A DNA stretch of 59,578 nt from Escherichia coli (GCF_003334255.1 NZ_QOWU01000030.1), one strand, 5' to 3'. Shown: positions 35,787 through 51,850, counted from the stretch's first letter. Translations and numbers: made by a program. Notes: generated by a model from the letters alone, not told the origin.

Positions 35787-35862
35787 GCCCGGATAGCTCA
35801 GTCGGTAGAGCAGGGGATTGAAAATCCCCGTGTCCTTGGTTCGATTCCGAGTCCGGGCACCA
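35787..35862 (+). tRNA. pheV: tRNA-Phe (GAA anticodon)
   Basis: 76-nt sequence gcccggatagctcagtcggtagagcaggggattgaaaatccccgtgtccttggttcgattccgagtccgggcacca with CCA end. Confidence 0.97.
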
Positions 35863-35997: not shown

Positions 35998-36061
35998 CGA
36001 TCATTTATTATGCTTGCAAAGCTTTTTCAGGTTGTCAACAACGGCAAAACAAAGTCATGAT

Positions 36062-37057
36062 CTAAAATACATCAGTAAGTTCTGCCAGTTCTTTTTCAAG
36101 CACTCTTGCCGTCCCCTTCAAATCGATTTCCACATACTCCAGAGTGGTGGAAACATTCCTGTGCCCGAGCATGGTTTTCACCATATAAAGATTACGTTCC
36201 GGTGCACTCATCAGCGTACTGGCCAGCGTATGCCGAAAGCGATGAGGTGATACAGGGAAACCGCACTCTTTCGTCAGACGTCTGAAAAATCCTTTTACCG
36301 GTTGCAGTTCCGGAAGTCCGGTAACGAACGGTGCTTCTGACATCAATGCCACATAACGATGATAATGGAAAAGATAATCCTCAGGTCTTGCCCCCCGTTT
36401 CATCGCCTCATCAATCAAGTGCCTCATTCCCGGGACAAGATGACTGACCATAGGGATACGCCACTCATGGTGTGTCTTACTTCCCTCCGAACACAGATCA
36501 ATCCATCTTTCATCCGGATTAACATCCCGCAGACGCAGGTGAAGTAACTGATTTAGCCTCATCCCGGTAAAACGCAGCGTATTTACCACAATCATCCAGT
36601 ACCATGCCGGACGAATCGCACAACTACGCCAGTGCACACCACCAGAACGCTTCTCCTCTTCATGAAACTGTTCAAGAATCAGCAGAATTCGTTTTACCTG
36701 TTTCTTCGTCAGTGTTTTCTTACGTTTCTTTTCCTGTCTGACATTCATACCATCAAACGGATTCTCACTTAAATTAAGAAGTGTTGAGGAACATGCAAAA
36801 TTGAAAATGGCACGCATATGGCGAACCTTGTTATTCCATGTGTGCGTGGAGCGATTCTGTTTTTTCAGAACCTCTCGTTTCCATTCCCTCACATGCTGTT
36901 GCCGGATATCCTCCGGTAAAAGGGTCTCGCCAACAAACTTCCGGAATCCATTCAGAACCTTTAGGTAACTCCACTCCGTAGCCACTCTCACTGAACGGCA
37001 GAAAAAATATTCATCCATAAGCTCGTTCCAGCGCATGTCAGCATGACTTAATTTCAT
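36062..37057 (-). CDS. Tyrosine site-specific recombinase / island integrase, up to 331 aa
   Basis: Catalytic-domain motifs HRFRHTLAS and LGHRNVSTTLEYVEID (R…HxxR…Y); about 200 bp from tRNA-Phe 3' end; exact start among M1/M8/M14 unresolved. Confidence 0.85.
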   Translation of the reverse strand: MKLSHADMRWNELMDEYFFCRSVRVATEWSYLKVLNGFRKFVGETLLPEDIRQQHVREWKREVLKKQNRSTHTWNNKVRHMRAIFNFACSSTLLNLSENPFDGMNVRQEKKRKKTLTKKQVKRILLILEQFHEEEKRSGGVHWRSCAIRPAWYWMIVVNTLRFTGMRLNQLLHLRLRDVNPDERWIDLCSEGSKTHHEWRIPMVSHLVPGMRHLIDEAMKRGARPEDYLFHYHRYVALMSEAPFVTGLPELQPVKGFFRRLTKECGFPVSPHRFRHTLASTLMSAPERNLYMVKTMLGHRNVSTTLEYVEIDLKGTARVLEKELAELTDVF

Positions 37058-37099
37058 AATTAAACCCTTTACAAATAGGTTACATTTTTACCAAAATAC

Positions 37100-38698
37100 T
37101 TACCTCCTGCGCTCACTGAAAAAAAAGTTCGGACTGTCATTGAGAGCCCCTGTATCCATCAGACCACGTCCTTTTATCAGATAACCTTTGAGTATTTTAT
37201 AATCGTGTGTTTTCCCTGGTGCCTCAGCAATTCGCGCATGATAAAAACGCTGATTATCTTTTCGCTTATGGATATTCAGTCGTTCAAATGCAGCCTGTAG
37301 CACCTCTCTCTTCTCCCCGGGGAGTTGCCGGGCTTTCAGGTAATCATAAAAAACCCCCGGCACAGGAATGAAGACAAAGCCGGCAACCACATGAATTTTA
37401 TCGCCTTTATTGTTAAACGACAGTGAACCATTCTTCAATCCGTCTTTCAGCCATTCAAGAAACCGCTCTCCTGTTAAATCAGGATTAACAGCATCAGATT
37501 CTGCTTCACAGTATTCCTGTTGCTCAGCGTCTTGATACGACTGACAGATTTCCCCATGGCCCGCTGCTGATATATCTCCTGTTGATGAAACAGGAGCAAC
37601 CACCTCGCCAGATGGCAAGTCATCCTCCCCCTTTTCCGGCGCCCTCGCCTCCTCCGCAAACATGCTTACCAGCATAGCTGTATCTTCATCTGTCGATATA
37701 CTCTCCGTTTCACATGCGGCATCGTCCTCTGAACCTTCACTGCTGTCTGGTGTCGTCGGTTTCTCAGCCTGTTGTTGCTGCATCTCTGATTGTTCCTGAA
37801 CAGACTCTGCAGCATTGCCGAACACGGTATTCCCTTCAGCCGCAGCCCCTTCCCCGGACACAGCCGATGCCACGGTGCTCTCCGTTTTACCGGATGCAAC
37901 CACCTCCCCCGTAACGACCTCTGCTGAAGCAATATGACTGGCTGTGGCAACAATTCCACCGTTTAACAACGGACTTTCAGCCTGACGGGCAGCCTCCTGC
38001 AGAACATCACGGATGAGTGCCATTTCCGGATGCTGATGCCAGAACGCACCGGCCAGATTCTGAAGCGCTCCCGGCACCGTCGCAAGCCAGGCTGCAGCCC
38101 CCTCAGGTAACAGACCACCGGCAATCACTGCCGCCAGTTGCTGAGCTTCCGTACCCTGTGGCGGGATCAGTCTGAACCGGAAACGATACGCCTCATCAGG
38201 AACGGATATACCCGGCTGCCATCCCCGGCAGCTGAACAATTCGCCTTCCAGATGCGCAAGCAGAGGCAGGTGATAAAACAGGGCTGACCAGAAAATCACT
38301 GCATGCCAGGCCGCCCCCTGTGCGGCCTGCTCTTCCGCAGAGGCGCCCGGCAGAAACATATGTGCACGGGCCAGACGGACCGCGTAACTGGTATGCAACA
38401 ACGTCAGGTCCCCGAATCCCCCTGCATGTGACCAGCGCCCCTCCCGGGCCGCCGGGACATTCTGCGTGGAGAGAAGCAGACTGTATATGGGCGCACAACA
38501 CATCGCCTCACACAATGACTTTGACATCATATTGTTATCCCGTATCTGCTTCAGACACTGCGTCCTGTTCTTCGGCATCAGCAGTGAATCTGTCGTCAGC
38601 GGAGCATAAAACCCTTCCGGCGTCCCCGGCAGTGACCGCCCGTCATCGGGTATCTCCACAGCAGAACCAGAGGTAAAAAACTTCCGTAACTTAAACAT
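37100..38698 (-). CDS. Uncharacterised acidic Ala/Glu/Ser-rich protein, 533 aa
   Basis: Start MFKLRKFFTSGS with GGAGGG SD, 4 nt after helicase stop; track ORF runs on into the helicase gene; no canonical Walker A. Confidence 0.6.
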   Translation of the reverse strand: MFKLRKFFTSGSAVEIPDDGRSLPGTPEGFYAPLTTDSLLMPKNRTQCLKQIRDNNMMSKSLCEAMCCAPIYSLLLSTQNVPAAREGRWSHAGGFGDLTLLHTSYAVRLARAHMFLPGASAEEQAAQGAAWHAVIFWSALFYHLPLLAHLEGELFSCRGWQPGISVPDEAYRFRFRLIPPQGTEAQQLAAVIAGGLLPEGAAAWLATVPGALQNLAGAFWHQHPEMALIRDVLQEAARQAESPLLNGGIVATASHIASAEVVTGEVVASGKTESTVASAVSGEGAAAEGNTVFGNAAESVQEQSEMQQQQAEKPTTPDSSEGSEDDAACETESISTDEDTAMLVSMFAEEARAPEKGEDDLPSGEVVAPVSSTGDISAAGHGEICQSYQDAEQQEYCEAESDAVNPDLTGERFLEWLKDGLKNGSLSFNNKGDKIHVVAGFVFIPVPGVFYDYLKARQLPGEKREVLQAAFERLNIHKRKDNQRFYHARIAEAPGKTHDYKILKGYLIKGRGLMDTGALNDSPNFFFSERRR

Positions 38699-40199
38699 CC
38701 TTTCCCTCCACCACCTTCTCTGTGCCACTCTCATGCGGGGACGGCGTCTTCTCCGTCGTCCTGCTCTTTTCCTCAGCCAGTTGCTGCATGAGCTCATTGA
38801 GTACCAGCGTCCTGCGTGCCCGGGTAACCGCCACATACAACAGGTTAGTTTCATCCCGGCGCGCCTGTTCTGACATCAGCGGATCAGCGATATCCTGAAA
38901 ATCATCCCCCAGTACAACCCGCACCCATTCCAGTCCCTTACTGCGGTGCGCCGTTGAAACCGTGATATCAGCCTCCCGCTCGTTCGTGACTGTGTGCTCC
39001 CTGAGTAGCTCCAGTTTTTTTGGTAACGGAAAACACAGCTCCAGCAGTCGTATGGACTGATTCATCTCCACATCCTTCGTCACCTTCGCAATATGACGGT
39101 ATTCATCAAAATTCCGGTAATCCCTGCGCAACCGGTCAGAGTGCATCCGGGCCGGCATATCCATCTGGAACCAGTAAAGATCTTCAAGCGCCTCCGTTCG
39201 GTATCCCTCAATGCCCCCGACCCAGTAAACCTTCCTGCCCGCCATTGCTGCCATCAGCGCCGTGCCAATCACTCCGGCGACGGTCCGGTTCAGTACCGCC
39301 CGGTGTCCCCCAAATTTTCCACGCTTCATGCGCTCACGCATTTCCTGCATGGTAAGCACCTCATCATCACCGCCGCAGCCGCTCACCTCTCGACTTTCCC
39401 CTGCGCGTTTCAGCAGCAGATTAGCCATCGCGGCCACTGCGGGGCCAAAACGAAAACTCTGTGTCAGCCAAAGACGGTCGGCACCGGACAGAGACGGATG
39501 AGACAGGGCATCATCCGCGCCACGAAAACGGTAGATCTGCTGATACCGGTCACCGACCAGCACAATCCTGCACCGCTGTCCCAGCACAAGTGCGGAAGTC
39601 ACCGGATTCGCATCCTGCGCTTCATCAAACAGAATGGTGTCCCATCTGCGCGAGAGATCAGGTCCGGAGAGCTGAAACAATTTGAGATAGGTGTCATGGG
39701 TGACCGGAAACGTTCCATCCGGATCGCTCATTGCCTGCCAGAGCGTCCTCACAGCACGAAGTGCCTCATCCGGAGCAACTCCTTTCATTTCGTCCTTGTC
39801 CGGCAGATGCTGCCTGCCGGGGGTTGCATCCGCTGAGCAGATAAACTGATTCAGCCCTGTCATGGCCACCCGGGCCAGTGCCCAGTATCGGGTATTCAGT
39901 TTTCTTGCCACATCGGTGACGAACAAGCCCGGAACAAGCCGCTTCTGGTAATGCCTTCCGAAGCGGGCAAACGCCAGCTGATGCGACGTTTTGCATTCAA
40001 CGTTAAAAGGAAACCTGCGCTCAGCTTCATCACGAATCGCACGATTATAGGCGAGATAGAGCATCCTGCTCTCCGGGCAGGCCATGGCATAGCTGACCAG
40101 TGTGCTGGTTTTCCCTGTACCGGCAAAAGCATTAACAACAAGCTTCCTCCCCTGCCAGTGAATAATTGCCGTCTGTTCTTCTGTCGGTTTATGGGGCAT
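38691..40199 (-). CDS. Compact UvrD/Rep-like superfamily-1 DNA helicase, 502 aa
   Basis: Walker A AFAGTGKTS, motif II ILFDEAQD, motif III VGDRYQQIY, motif V TAHRSKGLEW, motif VI YVAVTRARR; GGAGG SD. Confidence 0.8.
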   Translation of the reverse strand: MPHKPTEEQTAIIHWQGRKLVVNAFAGTGKTSTLVSYAMACPESRMLYLAYNRAIRDEAERRFPFNVECKTSHQLAFARFGRHYQKRLVPGLFVTDVARKLNTRYWALARVAMTGLNQFICSADATPGRQHLPDKDEMKGVAPDEALRAVRTLWQAMSDPDGTFPVTHDTYLKLFQLSGPDLSRRWDTILFDEAQDANPVTSALVLGQRCRIVLVGDRYQQIYRFRGADDALSHPSLSGADRLWLTQSFRFGPAVAAMANLLLKRAGESREVSGCGGDDEVLTMQEMRERMKRGKFGGHRAVLNRTVAGVIGTALMAAMAGRKVYWVGGIEGYRTEALEDLYWFQMDMPARMHSDRLRRDYRNFDEYRHIAKVTKDVEMNQSIRLLELCFPLPKKLELLREHTVTNEREADITVSTAHRSKGLEWVRVVLGDDFQDIADPLMSEQARRDETNLLYVAVTRARRTLVLNELMQQLAEEKSRTTEKTPSPHESGTEKVVEGKDV

Positions 40200-40663
40200 G
40201 GCTTTCCTCCGTAAAGACGAAATTTCCGGTCACTCTGCCTTCAGCCAGGCGACCGTGACCAGCATTAATTTACCCTGGTGACCATAAAATTTTACCTCCC
40301 GTAAATTTTTAGCGACCTGAAAAGAATTAATTATCGCCACCCGGGTATCAGCTGTTCATTATCCCCTCAGACACAGCCCACAACGGGTCTGCTGTATCAC
40401 CGTTCTTCGTAACGGTCATGCTCTTTAACAATCCGGGAGCGGCCACGCCCTGAAGCCGGGCTGAGGAGGAAAACAGATATGCTACGTAGAGAGTGACGTG
40501 CCGCGCCTGCAGCCACAGGTAACACTCCCCAACATCGGACACCGCAAATAATGGCTACACAACCCGAAAACGCACTGAGCGCCAGAACAGTGCGTTTCCG
40601 GTTGTGCCGGAGCCTGCACCCTGCAGAGTCCTGAACAACATCCAGTAAAACCAGGCACTTTCG

Positions 40664-40699
40664 GCGACATCATTTTCCCCATGGTGATGTCGCTTTTTT
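40664..40699 (+). terminator. Strong intrinsic terminator in non-coding region
   Basis: 9-bp stem gcgacatca/tgatgtcgc, 12-nt loop, then tttttt; no ORF of 60 aa or more upstream on this strand. Confidence 0.65.
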
Positions 40700-40736
40700 C
40701 AGCACAGAATAATAATGCACAGCAGGAGTACAGATA

Positions 40737-40967
40737 ATGGCATCAGCACTGGCCACCCCAGCCCCGTATAAATACTGTATTCAGGCCACCATCGAAAAAC
40801 CCGGCGGTACACCGGTTTCATGGATTCGCTTCCAGAATACGCCCATGACGAAACAGGAGTGTGAAAAACTCTTCTCCACTGAAAAAGAAGCCGGTAAATC
40901 TTTCACCGTTAAAGTCGGGGTTACTCAATTTTCATGTAAGGAAAATCCACCTGCACCTGGAGAGTGA
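40737..40967 (+). CDS. Hypothetical small protein, 76 aa
   Basis: AGGAG SD 8 nt upstream of ATG; no recognisable family. Confidence 0.4.
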   Translation: MASALATPAPYKYCIQATIEKPGGTPVSWIRFQNTPMTKQECEKLFSTEKEAGKSFTVKVGVTQFSCKENPPAPGE

Positions 40968-40975
40968 TTTTTATT

Positions 40976-41170: not shown

Positions 41171-41466
41171 GCATTCTTGGTGACAGGCACCAGTATTTCA
41201 GACAGCACGCCGGTTTTCGGTAGTACACCGGACAATGCGATTACAAACTCGCTGATTTCACTGGCGTTCTGTAATTCGTTATTAACTCACGCATGGATTT
41301 GTGATCTCTGCGACATACACAGAAACAAAAACATCTTTATTTATATAACACTGGCTTTTCTTCATCTTATTTTAATCAATTCATGCACCCATTTTATCTA
41401 CGCCACTTTTTATTAATTCAGTTAACTCCGTCTTAACAGACAGAAATAGTGAAAAAGGTGATACTG

Positions 41467-42138
41467 ATGAATATATTAAGATACTTAAGTATTTCGCTCT
41501 TCGCGTTCTCATTTTCATATACCGCCACAGCCTCCACTCAGATATCATCATCGCACAACCACGCCGAAAAACGTGCAATCGGTACGCTGAAATTTATACG
41601 GGCCGACGGACAACGACCGTTTGGTCAGGCTATGAAACAATTATTACCCACCGGCTGGCGTACTGAGATTGCCCGTGACGTCCGGCTCCCCGCCAGAATA
41701 TCATGGTCCGGAAATGACCAGTGGAACCATGTTATCGAAAAAACGCTGCCCCGCTACAGCCTGAAAGCCACATTTGATACCTCAGGGAAACGCGTACTGA
41801 TCCAGCAGGCGGAAAAAACGGTAAAATCTGGCCTGTTTTCTGCCCCCGTAACCGGTGTCAAAAAAACAGAAACACGTCATATTGAGCAGGGAATGACCCT
41901 GCGTACAGGGCTGGAAAAATGGGCAGCCGCCGAACCTTGCGCTACCGGGAAATGGAAAGTGGCATGGAAAACGCCGGTAAATTACAGTATCGATGCCCGG
42001 TTAGTTTTTTCAGGTAATTTTATGGATGCACTGAACAGTACATTCGCACTTTATCAGCAGGCTGAAAAACCCTTATATGCCTCGGTGAATAAAAACCAGT
42101 GCGTGCTGATAATTACTGACATCCCGGGGGACAGCTAA
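41467..42138 (+). CDS. Pilus-assembly accessory protein (PilL/TcpQ-like, tentative)
   Basis: Signal peptide; first gene of a block co-linear with the R64 thin-pilus operon; ATG 41467 with AGGTG SD (track starts at GTG 41449). Confidence 0.45.
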   Translation: MNILRYLSISLFAFSFSYTATASTQISSSHNHAEKRAIGTLKFIRADGQRPFGQAMKQLLPTGWRTEIARDVRLPARISWSGNDQWNHVIEKTLPRYSLKATFDTSGKRVLIQQAEKTVKSGLFSAPVTGVKKTETRHIEQGMTLRTGLEKWAAAEPCATGKWKVAWKTPVNYSIDARLVFSGNFMDALNSTFALYQQAEKPLYASVNKNQCVLIITDIPGDS

Positions 42139-42573
42139 ATGGGATGGCTCATGCCCCTCATAATGGCACTGTTTATCATCGGGAACTGGTTTCATGCCGG
42201 CAATACGGAGCGGGCAATAAAAAATACTGATGAGCAGCAAAGACAACAACAGGCATATGAAATATTACGCCTGACAAATGCCATTAATGACTGGAAATAT
42301 CATCATCCCGGTGATATCCGTGAAGGAAAGATGCTTACGGTTAACGAAACCGGATTCGCTCCGGTATACGGAACAAAACATATTATTTCAGGGCAAAGAA
42401 CTTTTGTCTGGCTTCCTTTTCAGCCAGGGCTGATATCAGCCCTGAATGAAGTGAGCCGAAACTCAGCATTAATTGCGCAGGTCAGGGACAGAAAGTTACT
42501 GGATAACCAAGGAAATAATATTGGTGTTCCGCCTTCCGTTATACCGGAAAATGCGATCGTCCTGATCAATTAA
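42139..42573 (+). CDS. PilM-like small membrane-associated protein (tentative), 144 aa
   Basis: N-terminal hydrophobic segment; size and position match R64 pilM. Confidence 0.4.
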   Translation: MGWLMPLIMALFIIGNWFHAGNTERAIKNTDEQQRQQQAYEILRLTNAINDWKYHHPGDIREGKMLTVNETGFAPVYGTKHIISGQRTFVWLPFQPGLISALNEVSRNSALIAQVRDRKLLDNQGNNIGVPPSVIPENAIVLIN

Positions 42574-42781
42574 GCATCCCCAAAAGGGGATTCTGCACTG
42601 AGGTCTGCATATCATGTCTTCTCTCAGCAACATGATATATCGCTACGGCGCAGACTTCAGTCCGGAAAATCTTTCTCAGTGTTCATTAACACATGAAATA
42701 CCCGTCGCTCTGTCTCACTGAATTGTTATTTCGTCCCTCCACAGACAGAGAATAAATATTCAACAAGCAGGTATACAGAAT

Positions 42782-44383
42782 ATGAAAAAATTTTTCTGCG
42801 CTGTCACCGCCTTATCCGTTGTTTTATCAGGCTGCAGCAGTTTTGAACGAATCAGTGCCACAGAAAAAAAAGCATCCGATGAGATAACACGGGCTGAACG
42901 TATAGCCGGTGAACTTCGCAAACAACGCGCCGTTGTGCGCGAAACAAACCAGCAGTGGATCAATACCACGCCCCTTCCGGAAAAAACCGTTACCCGGGCA
43001 ATACCGGATTGCCCGGTCGTCATAAACACCCGGGAAGCCATCACACTTCACCAGATTGCACAGCGGATTTCTGAAACCTGTCATATTCCGGTTCAAATCA
43101 TGTCTGATGTCTGGACACTGCTGGGTACCGGAGAAAATCGCACACAGAGGATCAGCGGCGACATTCCCCCGCCTGATACCAGTGGCATGCAGCCACTGAG
43201 CACCGTGGGGCTGTCATCAGCCGCCCCCTCCACGGCCTCACTGCCGGAACTCAATGTTCAGGGGCTGCCCGCTTTGCTTGACACCGTATCTTCACGCTTT
43301 GGGATCACCTGGCGCTATGTGAAGGGAAAAATTGAATTCCACTGGCTTGACACCCGTACATTCCCGGTCACCTACATGGACAGCCAGGTCGCCTACAATG
43401 CCAGAGTCGTCAGTGGCACCATGTCATCCACGGGCAGTTCCGGTGGTTCATCCGGCAGTTCCCTGAGTGGTGATGCCAGCAATACGCAGACAACCGCGGT
43501 TGATATGAAATCCACACTCTATGAAGACACAAAAAATGCCGTGAATTCCATGCTGACGCCCGGTATCGGAAGGATGGTGTTGTCCACCGGCTTTCTGACC
43601 GTAACCGACACACCACAGGTTCTGGATACTGTTAAGAATTTTATGGAAGAACGTAACCGGGAAATGCGCCGTCAGGTTGTGCTGAATATTGAAATCCTGA
43701 GCATCAAAAAAACCAGCAAAGAGCAGGCCGGAATCGACTGGAACGCCGTTTTCAGTGACGGACATCTCGGTATAGACCTGACCAGTGCATTTACTAATGC
43801 CGCCGATGAAGTCGTGACCAGTGGGGTATCGATTATTGACGGTAAGCTCACCGGTTCAAAAGCGTTTCTGAAAGCGCTTTCATCACAGGGTAAAGTCAGT
43901 GTGGTCACCCAAAACTCGGCTGTCACCAAAAACCTGACGCCGGTTCCTATGCAGGTCGCCAACCAGCAGGGGTACATAGAAAGTGTCACCACGGATACGA
44001 CGGCCAATGTGGGCTCCTCCACCTCACTGAATGCGGCAACAATCACCACCGGCTTCAACATGACACTGTTACCGTTTATCCAGCCCGGCTCACACCGGTT
44101 GCAGTTACTGTTCAGCATGAGCCTGTCCGACAAACCTGTTTTTGAAGTGTTTGAAAGCGGTGGCAGTCGGGCCCAGACACCGAGTGTTGAGCTGAAAACC
44201 ATCAACCAGACCATCGACCTGAAATCAGATCAGACTGTGATCCTGAGCGGATTCCAACAGTTCAGCCGGAAATCGCTCAGACAGGGCGTGGGCACCCCGT
44301 CATTCTTCGGACTCGGTGGTGGCGTGGACAGTGCAGATGACGACACCATTCTGGTTGTGCTGATCACACCGCACGTAATCTGA
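42782..44383 (+). CDS. pilN: Secretin-type outer-membrane lipoprotein (PilN-like), 533 aa
   Basis: Lipobox VLSGCSS; Ser/Gly-rich linker; secretin-like C-terminus (…DDDTILVVLITPHVI). Confidence 0.7.
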   Translation: MKKFFCAVTALSVVLSGCSSFERISATEKKASDEITRAERIAGELRKQRAVVRETNQQWINTTPLPEKTVTRAIPDCPVVINTREAITLHQIAQRISETCHIPVQIMSDVWTLLGTGENRTQRISGDIPPPDTSGMQPLSTVGLSSAAPSTASLPELNVQGLPALLDTVSSRFGITWRYVKGKIEFHWLDTRTFPVTYMDSQVAYNARVVSGTMSSTGSSGGSSGSSLSGDASNTQTTAVDMKSTLYEDTKNAVNSMLTPGIGRMVLSTGFLTVTDTPQVLDTVKNFMEERNREMRRQVVLNIEILSIKKTSKEQAGIDWNAVFSDGHLGIDLTSAFTNAADEVVTSGVSIIDGKLTGSKAFLKALSSQGKVSVVTQNSAVTKNLTPVPMQVANQQGYIESVTTDTTANVGSSTSLNAATITTGFNMTLLPFIQPGSHRLQLLFSMSLSDKPVFEVFESGGSRAQTPSVELKTINQTIDLKSDQTVILSGFQQFSRKSLRQGVGTPSFFGLGGGVDSADDDTILVVLITPHVI

Positions 44384-44394
44384 CGGAGGTTCCC

Positions 44395-45693
44395 TTGAAC
44401 GGGTCAATGCAGAAAAAAATTCGTCCAGTGTCACTGATATCGGGTAAACAGGCATTCCTTGCGGGCCTTGACTGGAAAAACATGCCTCCCGGTTACCGGA
44501 ATGCCCGGCGGTTTGCACAGTCACAGGGCGCAGAACTGTATCTTTCCTGCCACAACCACGACGGTGAAAACGGTGATGAAATGATGATTGCCCTGCTCAG
44601 TCGTCAGGATGCAGATATCCCCCGTAACATTCGCCAGTGCCTGTCACTGGCGATGTTAATACGCCCGCTCCTCAAATCAGGTGGGTATGCCATTTTCATC
44701 ATCGAGAACGACGACGCTGAACTCACCTGTGCGTTTGTATCGGTGATTAATGGCATTCTGGTTAACGACGTTACCGGTACCCCGACTGAAATCACGGAAG
44801 CCCGCAACACGTTCCTGATGCTCAATGCGGAACCGGAAAACGGCTGGGTACGCTACGAACCTGACGGTTTTTCACCAGACAGTCGGTGTATCCCGCTACC
44901 GCTGTCAAACCTGATCAGCACCAGAAAGCATCCGGCAGAAGCGCGTCTGCTCCCCGTGTCCAGAGGCCCACAGTTAATGACAGCCTTACTCATCATCACG
45001 CTGCTTGGCGCATCGTGGTACGGCTGGCAACGTTATGAAATCTGGCAGGCGGAAAAAGCGGAACGTGAAGAAAGCGCCCGGAAATCAGCTGAAGCACGTA
45101 TAACGCCACCATGGACGGGGCAGCCTGAGACCGGAGAATTTATCCGGCAATGCAGCACAACATGGAACCAGACGCCACTGTCTGCTGCCGGATGGCGTTA
45201 TACCCTGGCTGAATGTTCTTCTGACGGTAACAGCGGTAATCTGCGGTCTTCATACACCAATACAGCAGGCACGACAGTGACAGCCTTCATCCGGCGCATC
45301 ACTGAACTCACAGACACCCGGCCGTTTATTGTTATGCCTGAAGGGAACTCTGGCGGCGTTGCACTGCCGGTCACATTCCGGCTCCCAGATAATCCTGTCC
45401 CGGTTGATTCCCTTCCGGAAACCCGAGACCTGCAGGAACGACTGACCACGCTCGCACAGTCAGTTCAACTGCAGATTGACTGGCAGGAAGTCAATAACAG
45501 CTTCACTGATGAAAACGGAAACATCATCCAGCCACCGTGGAAAGAGTATGACCTGCAGATACAGACGCTACTCCCAGCTAACCAGCTGGCAGAGCGCTTC
45601 AGCGAGCCATCTGTCCGTTTTCTCTCCGTCACTAGACAACTGGAAAATGGTCGTTTCCGTTATCAGTTCACAGGTAAATATTATGCACGATAA
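44395..45693 (+). CDS. pilO: PilO-like pilus assembly protein, 432 aa
   Basis: Position and size match R64 pilO; TTG start 5 nt after GGAGG (or ATG at 44407); single TM segment. Confidence 0.55.
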   Translation: MNGSMQKKIRPVSLISGKQAFLAGLDWKNMPPGYRNARRFAQSQGAELYLSCHNHDGENGDEMMIALLSRQDADIPRNIRQCLSLAMLIRPLLKSGGYAIFIIENDDAELTCAFVSVINGILVNDVTGTPTEITEARNTFLMLNAEPENGWVRYEPDGFSPDSRCIPLPLSNLISTRKHPAEARLLPVSRGPQLMTALLIITLLGASWYGWQRYEIWQAEKAEREESARKSAEARITPPWTGQPETGEFIRQCSTTWNQTPLSAAGWRYTLAECSSDGNSGNLRSSYTNTAGTTVTAFIRRITELTDTRPFIVMPEGNSGGVALPVTFRLPDNPVPVDSLPETRDLQERLTTLAQSVQLQIDWQEVNNSFTDENGNIIQPPWKEYDLQIQTLLPANQLAERFSEPSVRFLSVTRQLENGRFRYQFTGKYYAR

Positions 45694-46144
45694 AACAAAA
45701 GCGCTGCTGATTGCAGCCCTGCTGTTACCGGCAATGGCGGTGGCCGGCAACGAAAATGACGCGCCGCAGAACAAACAACTGCAGATTGAGCAGATTCAGG
45801 AAGAAACCGCCCTGTATGAAGCGATGCTGGCAAGAGAAAAAATTCGTCATGAATTGCGGACACTGGAACAGGGTATCTCCCCGGTTTCCGGTTCTGTCAC
45901 GGGACATCAGCCGGAAAATGCGGCTGGCACCTCCTCCGGTTCACAGGCATTATCATCCCCCCGTCTGAAAGAAATCTTTGGTATTCAGCCACAGCTTTCA
46001 GCACGCGTCATACTCCCCGGAGGAACTGAAACTGATGTCAGGGCCGGACAGGCATTACCCGGCACGCTGTTCATGGTGGAACAAATCACACCGGAAAGTG
46101 TGATTCTGGAATACAACGGCAACAAGCAGACGCTACGCCCGTGA
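45683..46144 (+). CDS. pilP: PilP-like periplasmic protein, 153 aa
   Basis: Start MHDKTKALLIAALLLPAMAVA overlapping pilO stop by 11 nt; track ORF over-extended. Confidence 0.55.
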   Translation: MHDKTKALLIAALLLPAMAVAGNENDAPQNKQLQIEQIQEETALYEAMLAREKIRHELRTLEQGISPVSGSVTGHQPENAAGTSSGSQALSSPRLKEIFGIQPQLSARVILPGGTETDVRAGQALPGTLFMVEQITPESVILEYNGNKQTLRP

Positions 46145-46153
46145 GGTGCCATC

Positions 46154-47674
46154 ATGCCAGAGACTATCGTACTGCCTCCTGAAGATATTCGTGATTTCGT
46201 CGCAATTCAGCATGACGCTGACGGAAAAATCAGGGTGAAAGTCGTCGAAGCGAAGAAGCACATCACCTCTGTACAACGTTACCTGACGCTCTTACGCTCC
46301 CGCTATCCGGAAAAAATCAGCAAATTCGATTTTACCACTCTTGACGTTATCGCAGCCCTGAACAGCAATAATACGGAACGTGCACCGGGCGTTTTATCCG
46401 ACGGAGGGATCAACACAGTACAAAGAAAAGTTCTTGATTACATCAGAAAAGCCGCTCAACTGAATGCCTCAGATCTGCATATCACACCAGGACGCGACAA
46501 CACGGACTTCACCTATGTGGAAGCCCGGGTTCACGGCGAACTGGAAGTGCTCGATATCCTCCGGAAAGAAGAAGGCCTCGAATTACTGGGGGCCACCTAT
46601 TCCGGCATGACCGACGTCATCAAGGGCACACAGTTTGATCCCGGGGTGCCTCAGGATGCGCGTCTTTCAGAACAGTACCTGAAACTGGCAGGTCTGTTTG
46701 GTGCACGCTACTCCCACTACCCCTGTGTGGGCGGTCTCTATGCCGTGCTCCGGCTGATCAAGGATGACAGCCAGCAAATCCCGACCTTCAGTATGCTGGG
46801 CTACCACCCTGAGCAGGAGCGCACCCTGCGACGTATTCTGCAACGTCCTGAAGGCATTATCACACTCTCAGGCCCCACCGGCTCAGGAAAATCCACCACG
46901 CTGAGAACCGCCTCTGCGGCATACCTTGAACAGTACGGCTTCAACAACACCGGCGGTATTCTTCTTCCCCGTCGCAGGCTGTTCACCATTGAATCCCCAC
47001 CGGAAGGGCGTATTCCCGGTGCCATTCAGACCGCCGTCATGGATACCGCGCAGGGCTGGGTGGACTCCATCAAATCAGCGTTGCGTCTTGATCCTGACGG
47101 GATCCTGAACGGTGAAATCCGCGACCACGATTCCGCTATTACGGCGATAAAAGCCGCCATGACCGGGCATCTGATGCTGACCACCATCCATGCGAACGAC
47201 CCGATTAATATCCTCGAACGCCTTGAGATGGAAGGCGTTCAGACTAGGATGATCGCCGACCCACAGTTGTTCATCGGCCTGCTGAGCCAGCGTCTGGTTC
47301 AGCTGATATGTCCGCACTGCCGTCGCCCCTGGCATGAGGTGGCCACCGGACGCACGGATGATGAACGGCACCTAGTGGAAGGCTTCTGTAACCCGGACCA
47401 GGTGTATCTGAGAAATCATGAAGGCTGCCCACACTGCTGGCGTGGCGTGACGGGGCGAACGGTTATCGCAGAAGTCATCTCCCCGGATGCCCGTTTTTTC
47501 CAGTTGTACCGGGAAAAGGGCCGTATTGAGGCTAAAACCTACTGGCACAGAGAACTGGGCGGAATGACCCGAAATCAGCATCTCCAGGGAAAAATCAACA
47601 GCGGACAGGTTGATCCGCTAGCGGCCCATTACATCTCTCCCATCGACGAGGACAGCTATACGCTGTTGCACTGA
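46154..47674 (+). CDS. pilQ: Type IV pilus assembly ATPase (GspE/PilB family), 506 aa
   Basis: Walker A LSGPTGSGKSTTL, Asp box, His box (TIHANDP), tetracysteine motif (CPHC…CPHC). Confidence 0.85.
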   Translation: MPETIVLPPEDIRDFVAIQHDADGKIRVKVVEAKKHITSVQRYLTLLRSRYPEKISKFDFTTLDVIAALNSNNTERAPGVLSDGGINTVQRKVLDYIRKAAQLNASDLHITPGRDNTDFTYVEARVHGELEVLDILRKEEGLELLGATYSGMTDVIKGTQFDPGVPQDARLSEQYLKLAGLFGARYSHYPCVGGLYAVLRLIKDDSQQIPTFSMLGYHPEQERTLRRILQRPEGIITLSGPTGSGKSTTLRTASAAYLEQYGFNNTGGILLPRRRLFTIESPPEGRIPGAIQTAVMDTAQGWVDSIKSALRLDPDGILNGEIRDHDSAITAIKAAMTGHLMLTTIHANDPINILERLEMEGVQTRMIADPQLFIGLLSQRLVQLICPHCRRPWHEVATGRTDDERHLVEGFCNPDQVYLRNHEGCPHCWRGVTGRTVIAEVISPDARFFQLYREKGRIEAKTYWHRELGGMTRNQHLQGKINSGQVDPLAAHYISPIDEDSYTLLH

Positions 47675-47675
47675 C

Positions 47676-48776
47676 ATGAGATTTCTGGAAAAACTCAACA
47701 ACACCGACATTGAGCTGACAGCACTGACCGTCTGGATAGCCAGAAAAATCTTTGCCCTGAACCGGGTGGAGTTCTACGAATCCCTGGGCGGCATGATACG
47801 TGACGGGACCCCGTCACTGCGTGCACTCGAATTTCTCTGCAATGTCGAAACTGACTTCGGAACCCGGAAAGGGACATCAGGCATGTATTTTCTGGCGAAG
47901 GAATGCATCGCGTCCATTAAATCCAGCGGCATGTTATCCGGTGCTCTGCCCACCTGGGTGCCGCCGGAAGAAGCCACGCTCATTCGGAACGGGGAAGAGC
48001 GCGGGAATATTGCCGACGCGCTTTTCCAGGTGGCCAGAACCGTTAAGGCACGGCGGGAAATGACATCCAGCCTCATTGCCGTCTGCCTCTACCCCCTTCT
48101 GCTGCTTTCGCTCTGTGTGGTGAATATGTACAACGCCCATACCCGTATTGTCCCCATCGTCAGTGCGTTTGCTGCAGAAGATAAATGGTCATTCCAGATG
48201 AAAGTGCTGGCTGGCATGTCGGAGTTTTTCATCGGGTACGGATTCTGGCTCTGCGGGGCCAGTTTCACCCTGACTGTTCTGATCCGTTTTTCATTCAGCC
48301 GGTATACCGGCCCCGGCAGGAGGATGCTGGACAGGATTCCCCCCTGGTCACTGTATCAGACCTTACACGGGGTGAATTATCTGTTCAGTATTTCATCCAT
48401 GTTGCAGATCAATATTCCTCTTTCGCAGGCGCTGCTCCGAATGGAAAAAGGGGCAGAAAATAATAAATGGTTAAAGGAGAGAATTCAGGCAATAAGAAAA
48501 CATGTATTATCCGGTCAGAATCTGGCCACGGCAATGCGAAATTCCGGTTACGATTTCCCGTCCAGAATATGTATCAATAAACTGCTCCTGAATTCCGAAA
48601 GGGAGGACAGTGTGGCAGCCATGGCGCTCTATGCCGATCAGTGGCTGGAGGAAGCAAAAAAACGGGTAAAACGAATTGGATTAATTATTACCGGTATATC
48701 AGGAGGTTTTGTCTTCTTTTTTATTCTTAACATGATATCTGCCATCTACAGTATCAGCGACATGCTGAAGCAATAA
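47676..48776 (+). CDS. pilR: Type IV pilus inner-membrane platform protein (GspF/PilC family), 366 aa
   Basis: Polytopic membrane protein directly after the ATPase, 1-nt gap. Confidence 0.75.
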   Translation: MRFLEKLNNTDIELTALTVWIARKIFALNRVEFYESLGGMIRDGTPSLRALEFLCNVETDFGTRKGTSGMYFLAKECIASIKSSGMLSGALPTWVPPEEATLIRNGEERGNIADALFQVARTVKARREMTSSLIAVCLYPLLLLSLCVVNMYNAHTRIVPIVSAFAAEDKWSFQMKVLAGMSEFFIGYGFWLCGASFTLTVLIRFSFSRYTGPGRRMLDRIPPWSLYQTLHGVNYLFSISSMLQINIPLSQALLRMEKGAENNKWLKERIQAIRKHVLSGQNLATAMRNSGYDFPSRICINKLLLNSEREDSVAAMALYADQWLEEAKKRVKRIGLIITGISGGFVFFFILNMISAIYSISDMLKQ

Positions 48777-48827
48777 TCCCCGCCATACAGAATATTTCTT
48801 AAATATCCCATACACCAGGAGTGACAT

Positions 48828-49364
48828 ATGAACTTCAGAGCACGTATTTTTTATTACTTTTCTTTAAAAAAAGAGAAAGAGGAGGATAAAGGTTTAACAT
48901 TACTGGAAATTGCCGGCGCACTAATTATCATCGGTATTGTGGTTGCTCTCGCAATGAGTCAGATGTCCAGCACAATGGCATCCAGTGACAACCAGCGAGA
49001 ACTGAAAAACCTGCAGACCATTGCAACCAAAATGAAGCAGTACAAGTTCCAGGGCAGATATACCGGCACGGATTATATCAAAACCCTGACGGAAAGCGGA
49101 TCCCTGCCGGCTGATATGATTGCCGGAGGCAACAAAGCCAAAAACGCATGGGGAGGCGATGTCACCATTGCAACAACAAGTAATAAATACGGTTATATTA
49201 TAACCAGCAAAGCCGTGCCAAAAGAAAACTGTGTTGAACTGATTAACAGCCTGCGCAGTTCATCCATGTTCACAAAAATCAAAGGCCAGACACCTGCCAG
49301 TGTGGATCCGGTAACTGTATGTTCTGCCGCCACAAACGATATAACGCTCGAAACCAGCAGTTAA
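48828..49364 (+). CDS. pilS: Type IVb major prepilin, 178 aa
   Basis: Long leader then …KGLTLLEIAGALIIIGIVVALA (pilin processing motif, Glu+5); AGGAG SD. Confidence 0.75.
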   Translation: MNFRARIFYYFSLKKEKEEDKGLTLLEIAGALIIIGIVVALAMSQMSSTMASSDNQRELKNLQTIATKMKQYKFQGRYTGTDYIKTLTESGSLPADMIAGGNKAKNAWGGDVTIATTSNKYGYIITSKAVPKENCVELINSLRSSSMFTKIKGQTPASVDPVTVCSAATNDITLETSS

Positions 49365-49376
49365 TATCCTGACACA

Positions 49377-49399
49377 GCGCCCCCCCCGGGGCGCTTTTT
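49377..49399 (+). terminator. Intra-operon intrinsic terminator after major pilin gene
   Basis: gcgcccc/ggggcgc stem, cccc loop, ttttt tail, 13 nt after pilS stop. Confidence 0.6.
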
Positions 49400-49414
49400 C
49401 CGGAGCACATCCGC

Positions 49415-49897
49415 ATGAAATGGTTATTTCTTTCTGTCGTGATTTTTCCGTTATCTTTCACCCTTCCGGCTGAAGCTACCGCCACAAACACATTACTGGA
49501 CAGTTGCTTTATTCAGGCCGGGAAACGCTATCTGATTGCCCCTGAGCTTCTTAAAACCATTGCACAGCAGGAAAGCAGCCTGGTCGCCACCGCGATAAAT
49601 CACAATAAAAACAAATCCGGAAAAATCATCAGTACGGATTACGGGATTATGCAGATTAATTCAGTACATATTCCTGAGCTGAAAAAACTGGGGGTCATTA
49701 AAGATAAAAATGAACTGCTTAATAATCCCTGCCTGAATATTCAGACCGGTGCCTGGATACTGGCCCGCCATTTTCAACGCTGCGGCGTTAACTGGGAATG
49801 CCTTGGCAGCTATAACGCCGGATTCAGCAAAAATAACACAGCCCGGCGCATGATATATGCCCGAAAAATCCACAACCGGTATTTCAGAAAAGATTAA
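49415..49897 (+). CDS. pilT: Soluble lytic transglycosylase-domain protein, 160 aa
   Basis: Signal peptide; SLT motifs (…IAQQESSL…, …YGIMQINSVH…). Confidence 0.8.
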   Translation: MKWLFLSVVIFPLSFTLPAEATATNTLLDSCFIQAGKRYLIAPELLKTIAQQESSLVATAINHNKNKSGKIISTDYGIMQINSVHIPELKKLGVIKDKNELLNNPCLNIQTGAWILARHFQRCGVNWECLGSYNAGFSKNNTARRMIYARKIHNRYFRKD

Positions 49898-49907
49898 TTA
49901 ATACGAG

Positions 49908-50564
49908 GTGACGGTGAGCGCATTACTGAGCATGGCAATAATAATCATCATCCTGGCGGTTATTCTTTATCTTGCATACAGCACCGCCGCCATCTATCTG
50001 TCAGCAGTACACGACACCCGGCCACCAAAGCCGGTGGTGTACATATGTTGTCTTCTGGCCATAGTGAGTGTCAGTCTCAACGGCGCATATGGTGTTGAGG
50101 CCACGGGGCTGTTATTCCTTTCCATTCTGACGGGATTATTAACTGTAATGACGCTGACGGATATTGCTGTCTGTCGGCTTCCCCGGATATTCACGCTTTC
50201 TCTTATTATTCTGGGCGCAGCGTTCAGATACAGCCAGGACTCACTGACTCATGCCCTGCTCAACGCGTCACTGTGGTTCGGCATGATATACCTGTTACGA
50301 CGCATTTTTCTGGCAGCGAAAGGGACGGAAGCGCTCGGCCTTGGTGATGTGTTCCTGATTGCGGGGATCGCAATGTGGACGCAACCGCAACACACTCCAC
50401 TGATAATCACCGCCGCAGCCTCCGGAGCATTTCTGTTTATCCTCATTTTCTGCCGTCGCAGATGCCAGTTAGCGCTGCCGTTTGCCCCGTTTCTCTGCGC
50501 GTCCCTGTATGTGCTGACCCTCTTCCCTGATTCCGTTATCCACACATCGGAGATATTCACGTGA
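49908..50564 (+). CDS. pilU: Prepilin peptidase (A24 family), 218 aa
   Basis: Polytopic membrane protein with LGLGDVFLIAG motif; start codon uncertain (GTG 49908 / GTG 49914 / ATG 49932). Confidence 0.7.
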   Translation: MTVSALLSMAIIIIILAVILYLAYSTAAIYLSAVHDTRPPKPVVYICCLLAIVSVSLNGAYGVEATGLLFLSILTGLLTVMTLTDIAVCRLPRIFTLSLIILGAAFRYSQDSLTHALLNASLWFGMIYLLRRIFLAAKGTEALGLGDVFLIAGIAMWTQPQHTPLIITAAASGAFLFILIFCRRRCQLALPFAPFLCASLYVLTLFPDSVIHTSEIFT

Positions 50565-51850
50565 AAAAATTCAGACACGATGACGATAAAGGTTTTATTC
50601 TGCTTGAGGTTCTGGCGGGACTGATAGTGATTGGTATTGCCACACCAATGATTTATTCAGAAATTGAAGACTGGCTGAATGAACAACTTTATCAAAGTGC
50701 GGCTTTACATGCTGATGAATATAATAATGCAATAAAAAATTATGTGGCTGATAAAACCAGCTCACTCTCCAGTAAAACTATCACGGTAAATGAATTAATT
50801 CAGCAGGGATATCTGAACAACGGTTTTTCCCGCTCCCCCTTTGGACAAAGCTATATTACCGGTATCAGAAAAAATAATTTATCCGGTCGTCTGGAAGCAC
50901 TTACCTGCACAACCGGAGGACAGGATATTAAAGAAGATGGGTTACGTCGCATAGCGGGCCAGATTAATGGACTCGGTGGTTTTATGCTCCAGAATAATTC
51001 CGTTACAGGTTCCTTTGGCGGCTGGACCGATCTGGGAAGTAATTATCAGATTACCTGCAACAAGGGGCATATCGCCATGCGAATGGCAGGAAAAGATCTG
51101 GAGGAAAGCGATCGGCTGTACCGCTACAGCGTTCCGGGAAGACCCGATTTAAACAGAATGCATACTGGCATTGATATGAATAATAACAGCATCACCAATA
51201 TCAATGAAGCCAGTGGTAAAAACGCCAGATTTTCAGGCGATGTCACATCAAATCGTTGGTTACATCCAAATGGTGGCGGCTTCACCATGACGGACAGCCA
51301 GTGGATACGTGCTGTTAACAACAAAGGGATCACAACCGAAGGAGAGCTCAAAGGAGGAAAAGTCAGTGGTGGAACTGTCCGGTCTGAGGGGCGTCTTTCC
51401 ACGGGTGAGTATTTACAGCTGGATAAAACAGCTACTGCAGACACTTTCTGCTCACCAGACGGACTTGTAGGCCGCGACAGCAAAGGAGCAATACTTTCGT
51501 GCCAATCCGGTGCCTGGCGAACGATTGGTGCGCCTGACGGAAGTTACAGCAATTTGGGTTCTCACAGGGGAACATTTAACGGGAGAAATAACGGCAGAGG
51601 AACTTTGTTTGTGTACGCTTCCGGTGGAAATAGTGCCGGTGGCGGTGATTGCGCCAACACATCAAATCTTCAGGGCTATGTGAACGGCGCTTTCATTGGT
51701 ATGAATGCCAGCAATAACCCCTCCTACGGAAAGACGGCATTTATTTCATTTGCCGTGCCAGTGGGAGCGTCATATCAAATCATCTCCAGACCAACACAAA
51801 ATTACGCCTGTGGTAACGGTGTTTTCTCTTTGTATGCCTATCAGATGTGA
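50561..51850 (+). CDS. pilV: Minor pilin/adhesin PilV with shufflon-encoded C-terminus (current isoform), 429 aa
   Basis: Prepilin N-terminus …KGFILLEVLAGLIVIG; GTG start overlapping pilU stop; sfx repeat in frame as S-C-Q-S-G-A-W at 51499-51517. Confidence 0.75.
   Translation: MKKFRHDDDKGFILLEVLAGLIVIGIATPMIYSEIEDWLNEQLYQSAALHADEYNNAIKNYVADKTSSLSSKTITVNELIQQGYLNNGFSRSPFGQSYITGIRKNNLSGRLEALTCTTGGQDIKEDGLRRIAGQINGLGGFMLQNNSVTGSFGGWTDLGSNYQITCNKGHIAMRMAGKDLEESDRLYRYSVPGRPDLNRMHTGIDMNNNSITNINEASGKNARFSGDVTSNRWLHPNGGGFTMTDSQWIRAVNNKGITTEGELKGGKVSGGTVRSEGRLSTGEYLQLDKTATADTFCSPDGLVGRDSKGAILSCQSGAWRTIGAPDGSYSNLGSHRGTFNGRNNGRGTLFVYASGGNSAGGGDCANTSNLQGYVNGAFIGMNASNNPSYGKTAFISFAVPVGASYQIISRPTQNYACGNGVFSLYAYQM

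Follow-up and report, generated by a model that had tools for sequence, protein, structure and literature searches.

In a 59,578-nucleotide stretch of Escherichia coli DNA (NZ_QOWU01000030.1; hereafter the window), a gene for a compact UvrD-like helicase overlaps a gene for a protein of the TraI relaxase family, and both lie beside an integrase gene at pheV. This region probably forms the end of an integrative conjugative element (ICE) at which DNA processing and recombination are encoded. The ICE is of a known kind, that of SPI-7, PAPI-1, ICEEc2 and SGI-4, in which TraI and the helicase would process the element for transfer or replication. The pair is an already known module of low novelty: RefSeq names both genes correctly, an NCBIfam model and solved domain structures exist, and the homologous pair of SGI-4 has been described as a TraI relaxase (ORF86) that acts with a helicase (ORF85) (PMC6543542). 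ICEs of the SPI-7/SGI-4 type disseminate genes for virulence and for resistance to metals and antibiotics in Enterobacterales. The sole relaxase candidate of such elements is a protein without the motifs known to be essential for catalysis in the one MOBH enzyme studied, and its gene is usually translated together with that of a dedicated helicase.

The end of the island at tRNA-Phe

The helicase, traI and integrase genes are co-oriented and read toward the tRNA-Phe gene (Table 1), upstream of which ORF calling found speC and yqgA. A repeat check identified no duplicate of the tRNA 3' end within the window, so the far end of the island must lie beyond it, and the window covers only 24 kb of the island. 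The integrase scored below the equivalog cut-offs of all three NCBIfam models that it matched (XerA, XerD and XerC), and its RefSeq name is "tyrosine-type recombinase/integrase". A 42-bp spacer (37058–37099) separates it from the upstream traI gene. The upstream neighbors of the helicase gene are a DUF1187 gene and pil genes. Two features of SPI-7/PAPI-1/ICEEc2-type elements were found, namely a tRNA gene with an adjoining tyrosine recombinase and an R64-like type IVb pilus operon, the latter from the RefSeq annotation of a 99.9%-identical stretch of L001. A near-identical island in E. coli 2015C-3121 has MPF_G mating-pair genes 45–70 kb along, together with TraD and ArdC. Restriction-modification and toxin-antitoxin genes are present elsewhere on the island.

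The minus-strand ORF for traI spans 37100–38854 and has an ATG at 38698; this start, which gives a protein of 532 aa, is the one annotated by RefSeq in a 100%-identical copy. An earlier note on this DNA had placed the helicase stop 4 nt from the start of a 533-aa partner. Instead, the two genes overlap by 8 nt, with the helicase gene ending in GAT GTT TAA and traI beginning with ATG TTT AAG, an arrangement by which the two intact genes are translationally coupled. Other parts of that description were borne out, as the ORF calls placed both genes on the integrase strand and gave a helicase of 502 aa, GGAGG-type Shine-Dalgarno sequences precede the helicase gene and traI, and the gap to the integrase is indeed 42 bp.

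Table 1. Features at the integrase end of the island, with positions counted from the first nucleotide of the window.
Feature	Position	Strand	Basis
tRNA-Phe (pheV), island integration site, downstream of speC-yqgA	35787..35862	+	ARAGORN
XerC/XerD-like tyrosine recombinase, 331 aa, predicted ICE integrase	36062..37057	-	NCBIfam XerA/XerD/XerC
traI, MOBH-family relaxase-like protein (motif-less MOBH3 clade), 532 aa	37100..38698	-	TIGR03760, Pfam, RefSeq
TraI_2_C (DUF1528) domain, C-terminal, aa 404–529	37112..37489	-	Pfam PF07515, 2IPQ, Foldseek
TraI linker, predicted disordered, acidic, Ala/Glu/Ser-rich, aa 248–403	37490..37957	-	AlphaFold pLDDT, composition
TraI_2 domain, N-terminal, aa 23–247, HD-fold-derived, without HHH and HD motifs	37958..38632	-	AlphaFold, Foldseek
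8-nt overlap ATGTTTAA, helicase stop and traI start (translational coupling)	38691..38698	-	direct sequence reading
Compact SF1A UvrD-like helicase, 502 aa, ATG start	38691..40199	-	Pfam, motifs, AlphaFold, Foldseek
Imperfect inverted repeat, stable, arms ~19 nt; oriT or operator candidate	40558..40606	.	repeat search, DNA folding
R64/PAPI-1-type type IVb pilus operon (pilL-like to pilV), same island	41449..51850	+	RefSeq, L001 stretch 99.9% identical

Family and architecture of the TraI protein

Profile matches identify the 532-aa acidic partner of the helicase, which the earlier note had regarded as uncharacterized, as a TraI relaxase-family protein. It scored 177.6 bits against TIGR03760 (ICE_TraI_Pfluor; ICE relaxase, PFGI-1 class), for which the curated NCBI cut-off is 161.4 bits, with residues 28–242 covering model positions 1–215 of 218. 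Pfam matches were obtained to TraI_2 (PF07514; E 2.2e-12, residues 34–239) and to TraI_2_C (PF07515, DUF1528; E 1.7e-16), and the RefSeq name is [quoted passage not shown]. The C-terminal domain matched PDB 2IPQ, from STY4665 of SPI-7 (E 5.5e-20), with a Foldseek TM of 0.84 and 39% identity. The N-terminal domain (residues 23–247), modeled by AlphaFold with a pLDDT of ~90, matched Coxiella 3KQ5 in Foldseek (E 2.6e-6), and its HD-fold matches were weak. A confident profile match for the partner was the outcome that the earlier note had set against its own proposal, and TIGR03760 supplies it; the alternative raised there, of a diverged ICE DNA-processing protein such as a MobH-like relaxase, was correct, as these matches and the MOBH architecture show. 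The observation that the partner has no recognizable NTPase or nuclease motif stands at the level of motifs, but the protein does have clear family assignments.

[quoted passage not shown] The acidic, Ala/Glu/Ser-rich center described previously proved to be residues 248–403, which have a net charge of -30 and are rich in A, E and S; the acidic stretch SEGSEDDAACETESISTDEDTA begins at residue 320. The AlphaFold pLDDT was below 50 over residues 248–341 and 346–403, which marks the center as a disordered linker of the kind that MOBH relaxases typically have between two folded domains (PMC6736028). An architecture matching the domain layout of TraI is also described in PMC12857230. Members of the STY4665/MOBH3 clade have the same TraI_2, linker and TraI_2_C arrangement, and the window protein shares ~43% overall identity with a TraI homologue of 551 aa from S. 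Typhi that is presumably STY4665 itself. MOBH1 and MOBH2 proteins (gonococcal genetic island TraI, SXT, ICEHin1056 MobH) likewise have homologous N- and C-terminal domains and a disordered linker. The ICEHin1056 MobH gene also adjoins the integrase, as traI does here, but unlike the window, ICEHin1056 and a Stutzerimonas element have no helicase upstream.

Conservation of the helicase and traI pair

Co-conservation of the two genes was assessed from plasmid and E. coli collections. The helicase gene was followed by traI on the same strand in 12 loci, from Escherichia, Salmonella, Klebsiella, Citrobacter, Serratia, Pantoea and Erwinia, with identities to the window proteins of 55–100% for the helicase and 27–100% for TraI. 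At nine of these junctions the genes overlap by 4–53 nt and at the other three they are separated by gaps of 1–66 nt; the 8-nt overlap is identical in L001, L002, L003 and L096. The integrase follows TraI in eight of the 12 loci, and this synteny supports the earlier suggestion that helicase, acidic protein and integrase form one unit. All occurrences of the pair are in ICEs, at their integrase end, or on ICE-like plasmids with mating-pair genes, and in the circular forms (pSGI4, Citrobacter) SPI-7-type parA and dnaB-PI come after the integrase.

In SGI-4, an ICE of S. Typhimurium ST34, the order and strand of ORF85 (helicase), ORF86 (TraI) and the integrase are those of the window, and the genes that follow the integrase across the circular junction include parB in addition to parA and dnaB-PI. 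Identity between the two elements is 65% for the helicase, 38% for TraI and 49% for the integrase, and the SGI-4 TraI is likewise motif-less. SGI-4 differs in its start/stop overlap (4 nt versus 8 nt in the window), in its cargo of copper, silver and arsenic resistance, and in having no pil operon beside the module in the stretch examined.

The pairing of the helicase with TraI is not universal: in elements of the type of ICEKp2, the nearest named ICE, the integrase is accompanied by a motif-less TraI of 429 aa, and ArdC is present instead of the helicase. ICEKp258.2, considered as a relative and also possessing a pilus and type III restriction-modification, was found to be an unrelated, EARL-family, MOBQ element. 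The helicase family is also much wider than TraI. It is present in 1788 plasmid records, and among the matches listed, helicase relatives at 43 or more loci (27–51% identity; 50% for the IncC copy) had no TraI gene in the flanking DNA examined, which extended for at most 7 kb in either direction. Those relatives were retrieved with a narrow peptide pattern and are mostly distant, and they therefore inform the breadth of the family rather than the TraI-linked clade. On the IncC plasmid the helicase relative is upstream of traFHG, and on a Pseudomonas plasmid it adjoins repB. Conservation of the pair, which had been proposed as a check, extends to seven enterobacterial genera.

Catalytic motifs and the role of the pair

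In gonococcal genetic island TraI, the only MOBH relaxase to have been studied biochemically, the 3H and HD motifs are essential for cleavage (PMC6736028). MOBH1 and MOBH2 proteins keep the HHH and HDIGK sequences needed for Mn/Co-dependent cleavage, whereas the window TraI has neither. In alignments it reads GRW where the ICEHin1056 and Stutzerimonas MobH proteins have HHH, and at the HDxGK motif it reads YHL-P, with a one-residue deletion, where they have HDIGK. Its score against the NCBIfam MobH equivalog NF041494 was 65.5 bits, below the cut-off of 200. Both motifs are also absent from all 11 enterobacterial relatives that are accompanied by the helicase and from the ICEKp2-type protein. 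As ICEKp2 has neither the two motifs nor the helicase, a strict rule by which the HD and 3H motifs are lost only where the helicase is present was rejected. The residues common to MOBH1–3 (D97, E122, Q124 and W131 in the window TraI) are retained. The MOBH3 clade, to which STY4665 belongs, has already been defined in the literature by the absence of the 3H and HD motifs (PMC6736028). With TraI_2/TraI_2_C homology but without these motifs, and related to both solved MOBH3 proteins (2IPQ and 3KQ5), the window TraI is assigned by its sequence to this motif-less clade.

If the pair processes the ICE, as we consider probable, the integrase would excise the element first. TraI would then recognize oriT on the circular form and start strand processing, and the co-translated helicase, loaded at the oriT site, would unwind the duplex so that the excised ICE could be transferred and/or replicated as a rolling circle. 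The pair would in this way be a two-protein equivalent of the fused relaxase-helicase TraI of MOBF, or of NicK and host PcrA in ICEBs1. The likeness to the MOBF proteins (F/R1 TraI, R388 TrwC) and to ICEBs1 NicK/PcrA/HelP is one of functional analogy only: a relaxase works together with an SF1 helicase, and unwinding starts at oriT (PMC12857230, PMC5812530). In ICEBs1, PcrA/HelP is known to unwind DNA from the nick made by the relaxase (PMC5812530), and replication of excised ICEclc is driven by TraI and oriT (PMC6561031). ICEBs1 borrows PcrA from its host, whereas the window helicase is element-encoded and of the SF1A type. Each MOBF protein combines an HUH nuclease and an SF1B, 5'-3' helicase in one polypeptide, whereas the window helicase is a separate protein.

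Against this scheme stand the missing 3H and HD motifs, the low MobH score, the lack of MOB-suite relaxase calls in several elements with this TraI, the breadth of the helicase family beyond TraI, and the ICEKp2-type elements without the helicase. The motif-less TraI may make the nick, but it has been suggested explicitly that MOBH3 proteins, having lost the motifs, may have "an alternative function" (PMC6736028). TraI might instead bind oriT or other DNA as an adaptor and load or regulate its partner helicase for replication or maintenance of the excised element, with the nick made by another factor or by an undescribed chemistry. We consider this unlikely. The absence of the 3H and HD motifs from TraI and from the relatives named above fits such a role, as does the occurrence of the helicase family beside plasmid replication genes (repB, Tus-like), but on the pSGI4, Citrobacter and Pantoea elements, all complete circular forms, MOB-suite detected no further relaxase, and yet SGI-4 is an ICE by the title of the paper that describes it (PMC6543542). 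In addition, ECA0613, a putative relaxase of the related island HAI2 that may belong to the same clade, is involved in mobilization (cited in PMC6736028), and the persistence in TraI of the four residues conserved across MOBH1–3 also speaks against an adaptor.

A broader proposal, fairly unlikely in our estimation, is that MOBH3 TraI and the FBH1-like helicase are a split relaxase-helicase with a chemistry unlike that of every characterized relaxase, TraI being either only an adaptor or loader or the bearer of a new active site. If true, it would explain both the transfer of SPI-7/SGI-4-type ICEs without a recognizable relaxase catalytic motif and the non-mobilizable calls that typing tools give to some of them. 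MOB-suite assigned no relaxase in several elements carrying a motif-less TraI, and as it misses MOBH3 TraI in several complete elements, mobility is under-called.

The helicase

The helicase matched Pfam UvrD-helicase, AAA_19 and UvrD_C and has the motifs I–VI and two-RecA-domain fold of SF1A enzymes. The full SF1 motif set reported in the earlier note was confirmed, its residues being invariant in 41 family members (G27/K30, E193-Q195-D196, D217/Q220, R250, H418-K421-G422-E424 and Y455/V456/R460). Foldseek searches with the AlphaFold model (pLDDT 94) returned a probability of 1.0 to FBH1, UvrD, Rep and PcrA, with a TMq of 0.80 for FBH1, ~0.6 for UvrD/Rep/PcrA and 0.36 for GajB. Eukaryotic FBH1 (F-box DNA helicase 1) was the closest solved relative (E 2.3e-53, residues 20–474, 29% identity), and orthology to UvrD, Rep, PcrA or helicase IV was not indicated, as the best score was 45.9 bits against equivalog cut-offs of 543 to 1168. 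The protein is best described, from these comparisons, as a compact SF1A enzyme of a very large, plasmid- and ICE-borne, FBH1-like family. It differs from FBH1 in having neither the F-box nor the N-terminal extension, in being bacterial and in its location on a mobile element. A literature search on UvrD-like helicases together with relaxases and conjugative elements gave nothing, nor did we find an experimental study of this helicase.

The proposal that the protein is too short for the UvrD/Rep accessory domains was partly correct. The long 2B domain and C-terminal tail of UvrD are missing, but motif spacing and the AlphaFold model revealed helical insertions at residues ~72–177 and ~330–402, which we infer to be the 1B and a reduced 2B domain, respectively.

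FBH1 is an anti-recombinase, and UvrD, Srs2 and FBH1 all strip recombinase filaments. The window helicase might, by analogy with this closest solved relative, be mainly protective, stripping RecA from ssDNA and thereby either damping SOS or shielding the element in its excised or incoming form; it would then not be the unwinding motor of transfer. The presence of the family on many plasmids distant from any relaxase gene is in line with such a role, which is nevertheless very unlikely: the translational coupling of helicase and TraI, seen in 12 loci, suggests that the two proteins act jointly.

GajB of the Gabija system is, like the window helicase, a UvrD-like SF1A protein, but the HMM matches between them are only partial. 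PADLOC gave no match for TraI or the integrase, and the helicase produced only generic GajB-type matches. In Gabija a GajA/OLD gene is beside the helicase gene, whereas here the neighbor is traI in an ICE-backbone context, in agreement with the earlier view that the partner is not GajA-type. A new two-gene anti-phage defense or anti-defense module, also put forward previously, is highly improbable, as the weak GajB-model matches (up to 70.7 bits) and the restriction-modification and toxin-antitoxin genes elsewhere on the island are set against a TraI-family partner unmatched by PADLOC, a poor GajB fold match, and a constant location outside the variable cargo, where the ICE backbone ends in the integrase.

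Search for oriT

Processing of the ICE by TraI and the helicase would begin at an oriT. We compared the DNA upstream of the helicase gene across clades for a conserved oriT, and no general oriT emerged; other clades have different inverted repeats immediately upstream of the helicase ATG. The candidate repeat of the window (Table 1), which is 355–405 nt upstream of this ATG, folds as a DNA hairpin of -21.9 kcal/mol (z = -6.3) and was not found in relatives more distant than the closest clade, represented by L002. In the L002 counterpart the outer stem is kept and the changes in the inner stem are compensatory, with a folding energy of -19.4 kcal/mol (z = -5.7).

Gene Organization at the pheV tRNA

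The integrase, TraI and helicase genes follow the tRNA-Phe gene and are co-oriented, all lying on the minus strand. Direct reading of the helicase/traI junction gave GGAGGGAAAGG ATG TTT AAG, in which the traI ATG overlaps the final helicase codons and stop (GAT GTT TAA) by 8 nt. The earlier note had placed the two genes 4 nt apart and given the partner 533 residues; the supposed gap is in fact this overlap, and as the ATG lies at 38698 the protein has 532 residues, the length that RefSeq gives for the identical gene. The 42-bp gap between the partner and integrase genes was confirmed, as were, on sequence reading, the Shine-Dalgarno sequences of both genes and the quoted acidic peptide, which begins at residue 320 of the partner. 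The observation was thus real, needing small coordinate corrections.

Features at the tRNA-Phe gene and the helicase/TraI module
Feature	Position	Strand	Remarks
tRNA-Phe	35787-35862	+	speC and yqgA also in window
Tyrosine recombinase, 331 aa (integrase)	36062-37057	-	ORF
TraI partner, 532 aa	37100-38698	-	ORF; ATG at 38698, end at 37100
Helicase, 502 aa	38691-40199	-	ORF

The Partner Is a TraI Protein of the MOBH Family

The acidic partner had been considered uncharacterised, with a MobH-like ICE protein as the second of two suggestions for its identity. That suggestion was right, as profile, Pfam and structure matches all place the partner in the TraI family. It scored 177.6 bits against NCBIfam TIGR03760 ("integrating conjugative element relaxase, PFGI-1 class"; curated cut-off 161.4) and 65.5 bits against the canonical MobH equivalog, under the cut-off of 200. 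Pfam domains TraI_2 and TraI_2_C were identified at residues 34-239 and 409-514, and the C-domain matches 2IPQ, a solved Salmonella Typhi structure listed as "hypothetical protein STY4665" (E 5.5e-20). In an AlphaFold model built with 21 homologues, the N-domain (23-247) and C-domain (404-529) were confident and residues 248-403 disordered. Foldseek returned 2IPQ (TM 0.84), the Coxiella TraI_2 protein 3KQ5 and, beyond those, just weak HD-fold proteins. This layout is the architecture reported for MOBH relaxases, namely a relaxase domain, a disordered middle and TraI_2_C (PMC6736028, PMC12857230). The acidic center, whose 156 disordered residues include 24 Glu, 10 Asp, 25 Ala and 20 Ser (net charge -30), is therefore the linker of the family.

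Alignment with the canonical MobH proteins of ICEHin1056 and a Stutzerimonas element showed that the HHH...DH and HDIGK motifs are replaced in the window TraI by GRW...DL and YHL-P. The same replacement was found in all 11 enterobacterial helicase-bearing relatives and in ICEKp2-type TraI. Because both motifs are replaced, the protein is, judged from its sequence, a member of MOBH3, a clade whose motif loss is already on record (PMC6736028). The HHH and HD motifs are both essential for cleavage in the sole biochemically studied MOBH relaxase (PMC6736028), and "relaxase" is for the window TraI a standard annotation rather than a demonstrated activity. The same paper suggests that MOBH3 proteins may have an alternative function.

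MOB-suite (via PLSDB) reports pSGI4, the circular form of SGI-4, and three other complete circular elements with this TraI (L093, L098 and L099) as "non-mobilizable" despite their TraI clade and MPF genes. As no relaxase was assigned to any of the four, relaxase typing misses their MOBH3 proteins.

TraI diverges much faster than the flanking helicase and integrase; in E. coli GF4 its identity is 53%, versus 82% and 81%, respectively. When window 37100-38698 was compared with GF4, a further E. coli relative (L003), pSGI4 and others, the linker could hardly be aligned at all, and the C-domain had diverged further than the N-domain.

The Helicase Belongs to a Family Typical of Mobile Elements

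The full SF1 motif set ascribed to the helicase was unchanged across 41 aligned family members (35-56% identity), and its structure model was confident (pLDDT 94). By a wide margin, the best solved relative was the eukaryotic FBH1 helicase domain (phmmer E 2.3e-53 over residues 20-474; Foldseek TMq 0.80; 29% identity), compared with E about 1e-6 and TMq about 0.6 for UvrD, Rep and PcrA; Gabija GajB was far behind (TMq 0.36). This closeness hints that FBH1 and mobile-element helicases are evolutionarily linked. Against the NCBIfam housekeeping-helicase models, the protein was an orthologue of none. With 2808 clusters at 50% identity (E ≤ 1e-30), the family is very large, and it is typical of mobile elements: it occurs in 1788 plasmid records, of which 1229 are typed as conjugative.

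Conservation of the Module

The helicase is present in 80 of 5426 complete E. coli genomes. Three diverged E. coli versions (helicase nucleotide identity 100%, 79% and 73%) all share the 8-nt overlap and carry the integrase, TraI and helicase genes. These versions, with loci from protein look-ups and the plasmid collection, formed a 12-locus set spanning Escherichia, Salmonella, Klebsiella, Citrobacter, Serratia, Pantoea and Erwinia. Co-conservation of the pair held within this set, as helicase and TraI were same-strand neighbors in 12/12 loci of the seven genera, but the pairing is not universal. Identity to the window proteins was 55-100% for the helicase and 27-100% for TraI; the junction was an overlap of 4-53 nt at nine loci and a gap of 1-66 nt at three, and the integrase came next after TraI in eight. 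Next after the module, the circular forms (pSGI4, Citrobacter) carry SPI-7-type parA and dnaB-PI, with parB also in pSGI4.

Canonical MobH occurs without the helicase in ICEHin1056 and the Stutzerimonas element, and in ICEKp2-type elements the motif-less TraI is preceded by ArdC. For the 43 loci listed with more distant helicase relatives, the DNA fetched (up to 7 kb on each side) held no TraI-family gene, also by profile search. A homologue 50% identical in the IncC plasmid pUMNK88 immediately precedes traF-traH-traG and follows Tus-like and DNA-binding genes, and one 44% identical in a P. aeruginosa plasmid lies beside repB. These other backbone positions suggest that such helicases have a general accessory function in replication or transfer on MOBH-type and other plasmids.

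Possible Function of the Helicase/TraI Pair

The other suggestion, a new defense module, we consider largely refuted: a PADLOC scan matched neither the partner nor the integrase, its sole hits being generic, partial GajB matches to the helicase, and the pair sits in conserved ICE backbone adjoining the integrase, outside the cargo. The novelty of the module is low since it has already been annotated and described. We infer that the three genes form a recombination and DNA-processing block, in which the integrase would excise the element, TraI would engage oriT on the excised circle, and the co-translated helicase would start unwinding there, serving transfer and/or rolling-circle replication. 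The pair would be analogous to fused MOBF relaxase-helicases (PMC12857230) and to ICEBs1, in which NicK recruits host PcrA and HelP (PMC5812530). TraI- and oriT-dependent replication of excised ICEclc is documented (PMC6561031), and the SGI-4 authors proposed that TraI (ORF86) works "in conjunction with" the adjoining helicase (ORF85) (PMC6543542). The helicase may serve transfer, replication or protection; the latter two are allowed for by the other genomic settings of its family and by its likeness to FBH1. It seems unlikely that MOBH3 TraI and this type of helicase constitute a non-canonical split relaxase-helicase.

A very stable inverted repeat (DNA fold -21.9 kcal/mol, z = -6.3) occupies 40558-40606, 355-405 nt ahead of the helicase ATG, and may be an oriT or operator. 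In its GF4 counterpart the outer stem is retained and the inner-stem changes are compensatory; the repeat was not seen in more distant clades.

Island Context

Window 35739-51511, which starts at the tRNA, shares 99.9% identity with an island that E. coli 2015C-3121 carries at pheU. In that strain a DUF1187 gene comes after the module, then a pil operon of R64/PAPI-1 type and the shufflon recombinase. A further 45-70 kb along lie ArdC, TraD (the coupling protein) and a complete set of MPF_G genes ("integrating conjugative element"). The element is of the SPI-7/PAPI-1/ICEEc2/SGI-4 kind. Within the window, which covers the first 24 kb of the island, the 3' end of the tRNA occurs only once. The near-identical island lies at pheV in the window, whereas in 2015C-3121 it follows dsbD-dicD at pheU, so the element can use either of the two tRNA-Phe genes; the literature cites ICEEc2 as a PAPI-like E. 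coli ICE using pheV and pheU.

A 572-bp segment at 52252-52823, beside pilV and the shufflon recombinase, is inverted relative to 2015C-3121, which looks like shufflon switching. At 54452-56058 the window keeps 1.6 kb that includes an ORF of 273 aa and the 5' portion of a TraF-like ORF of 416 aa, where 2015C-3121 has IS1 and a truncated traF. Window bases 1-77 match an IS1 end.
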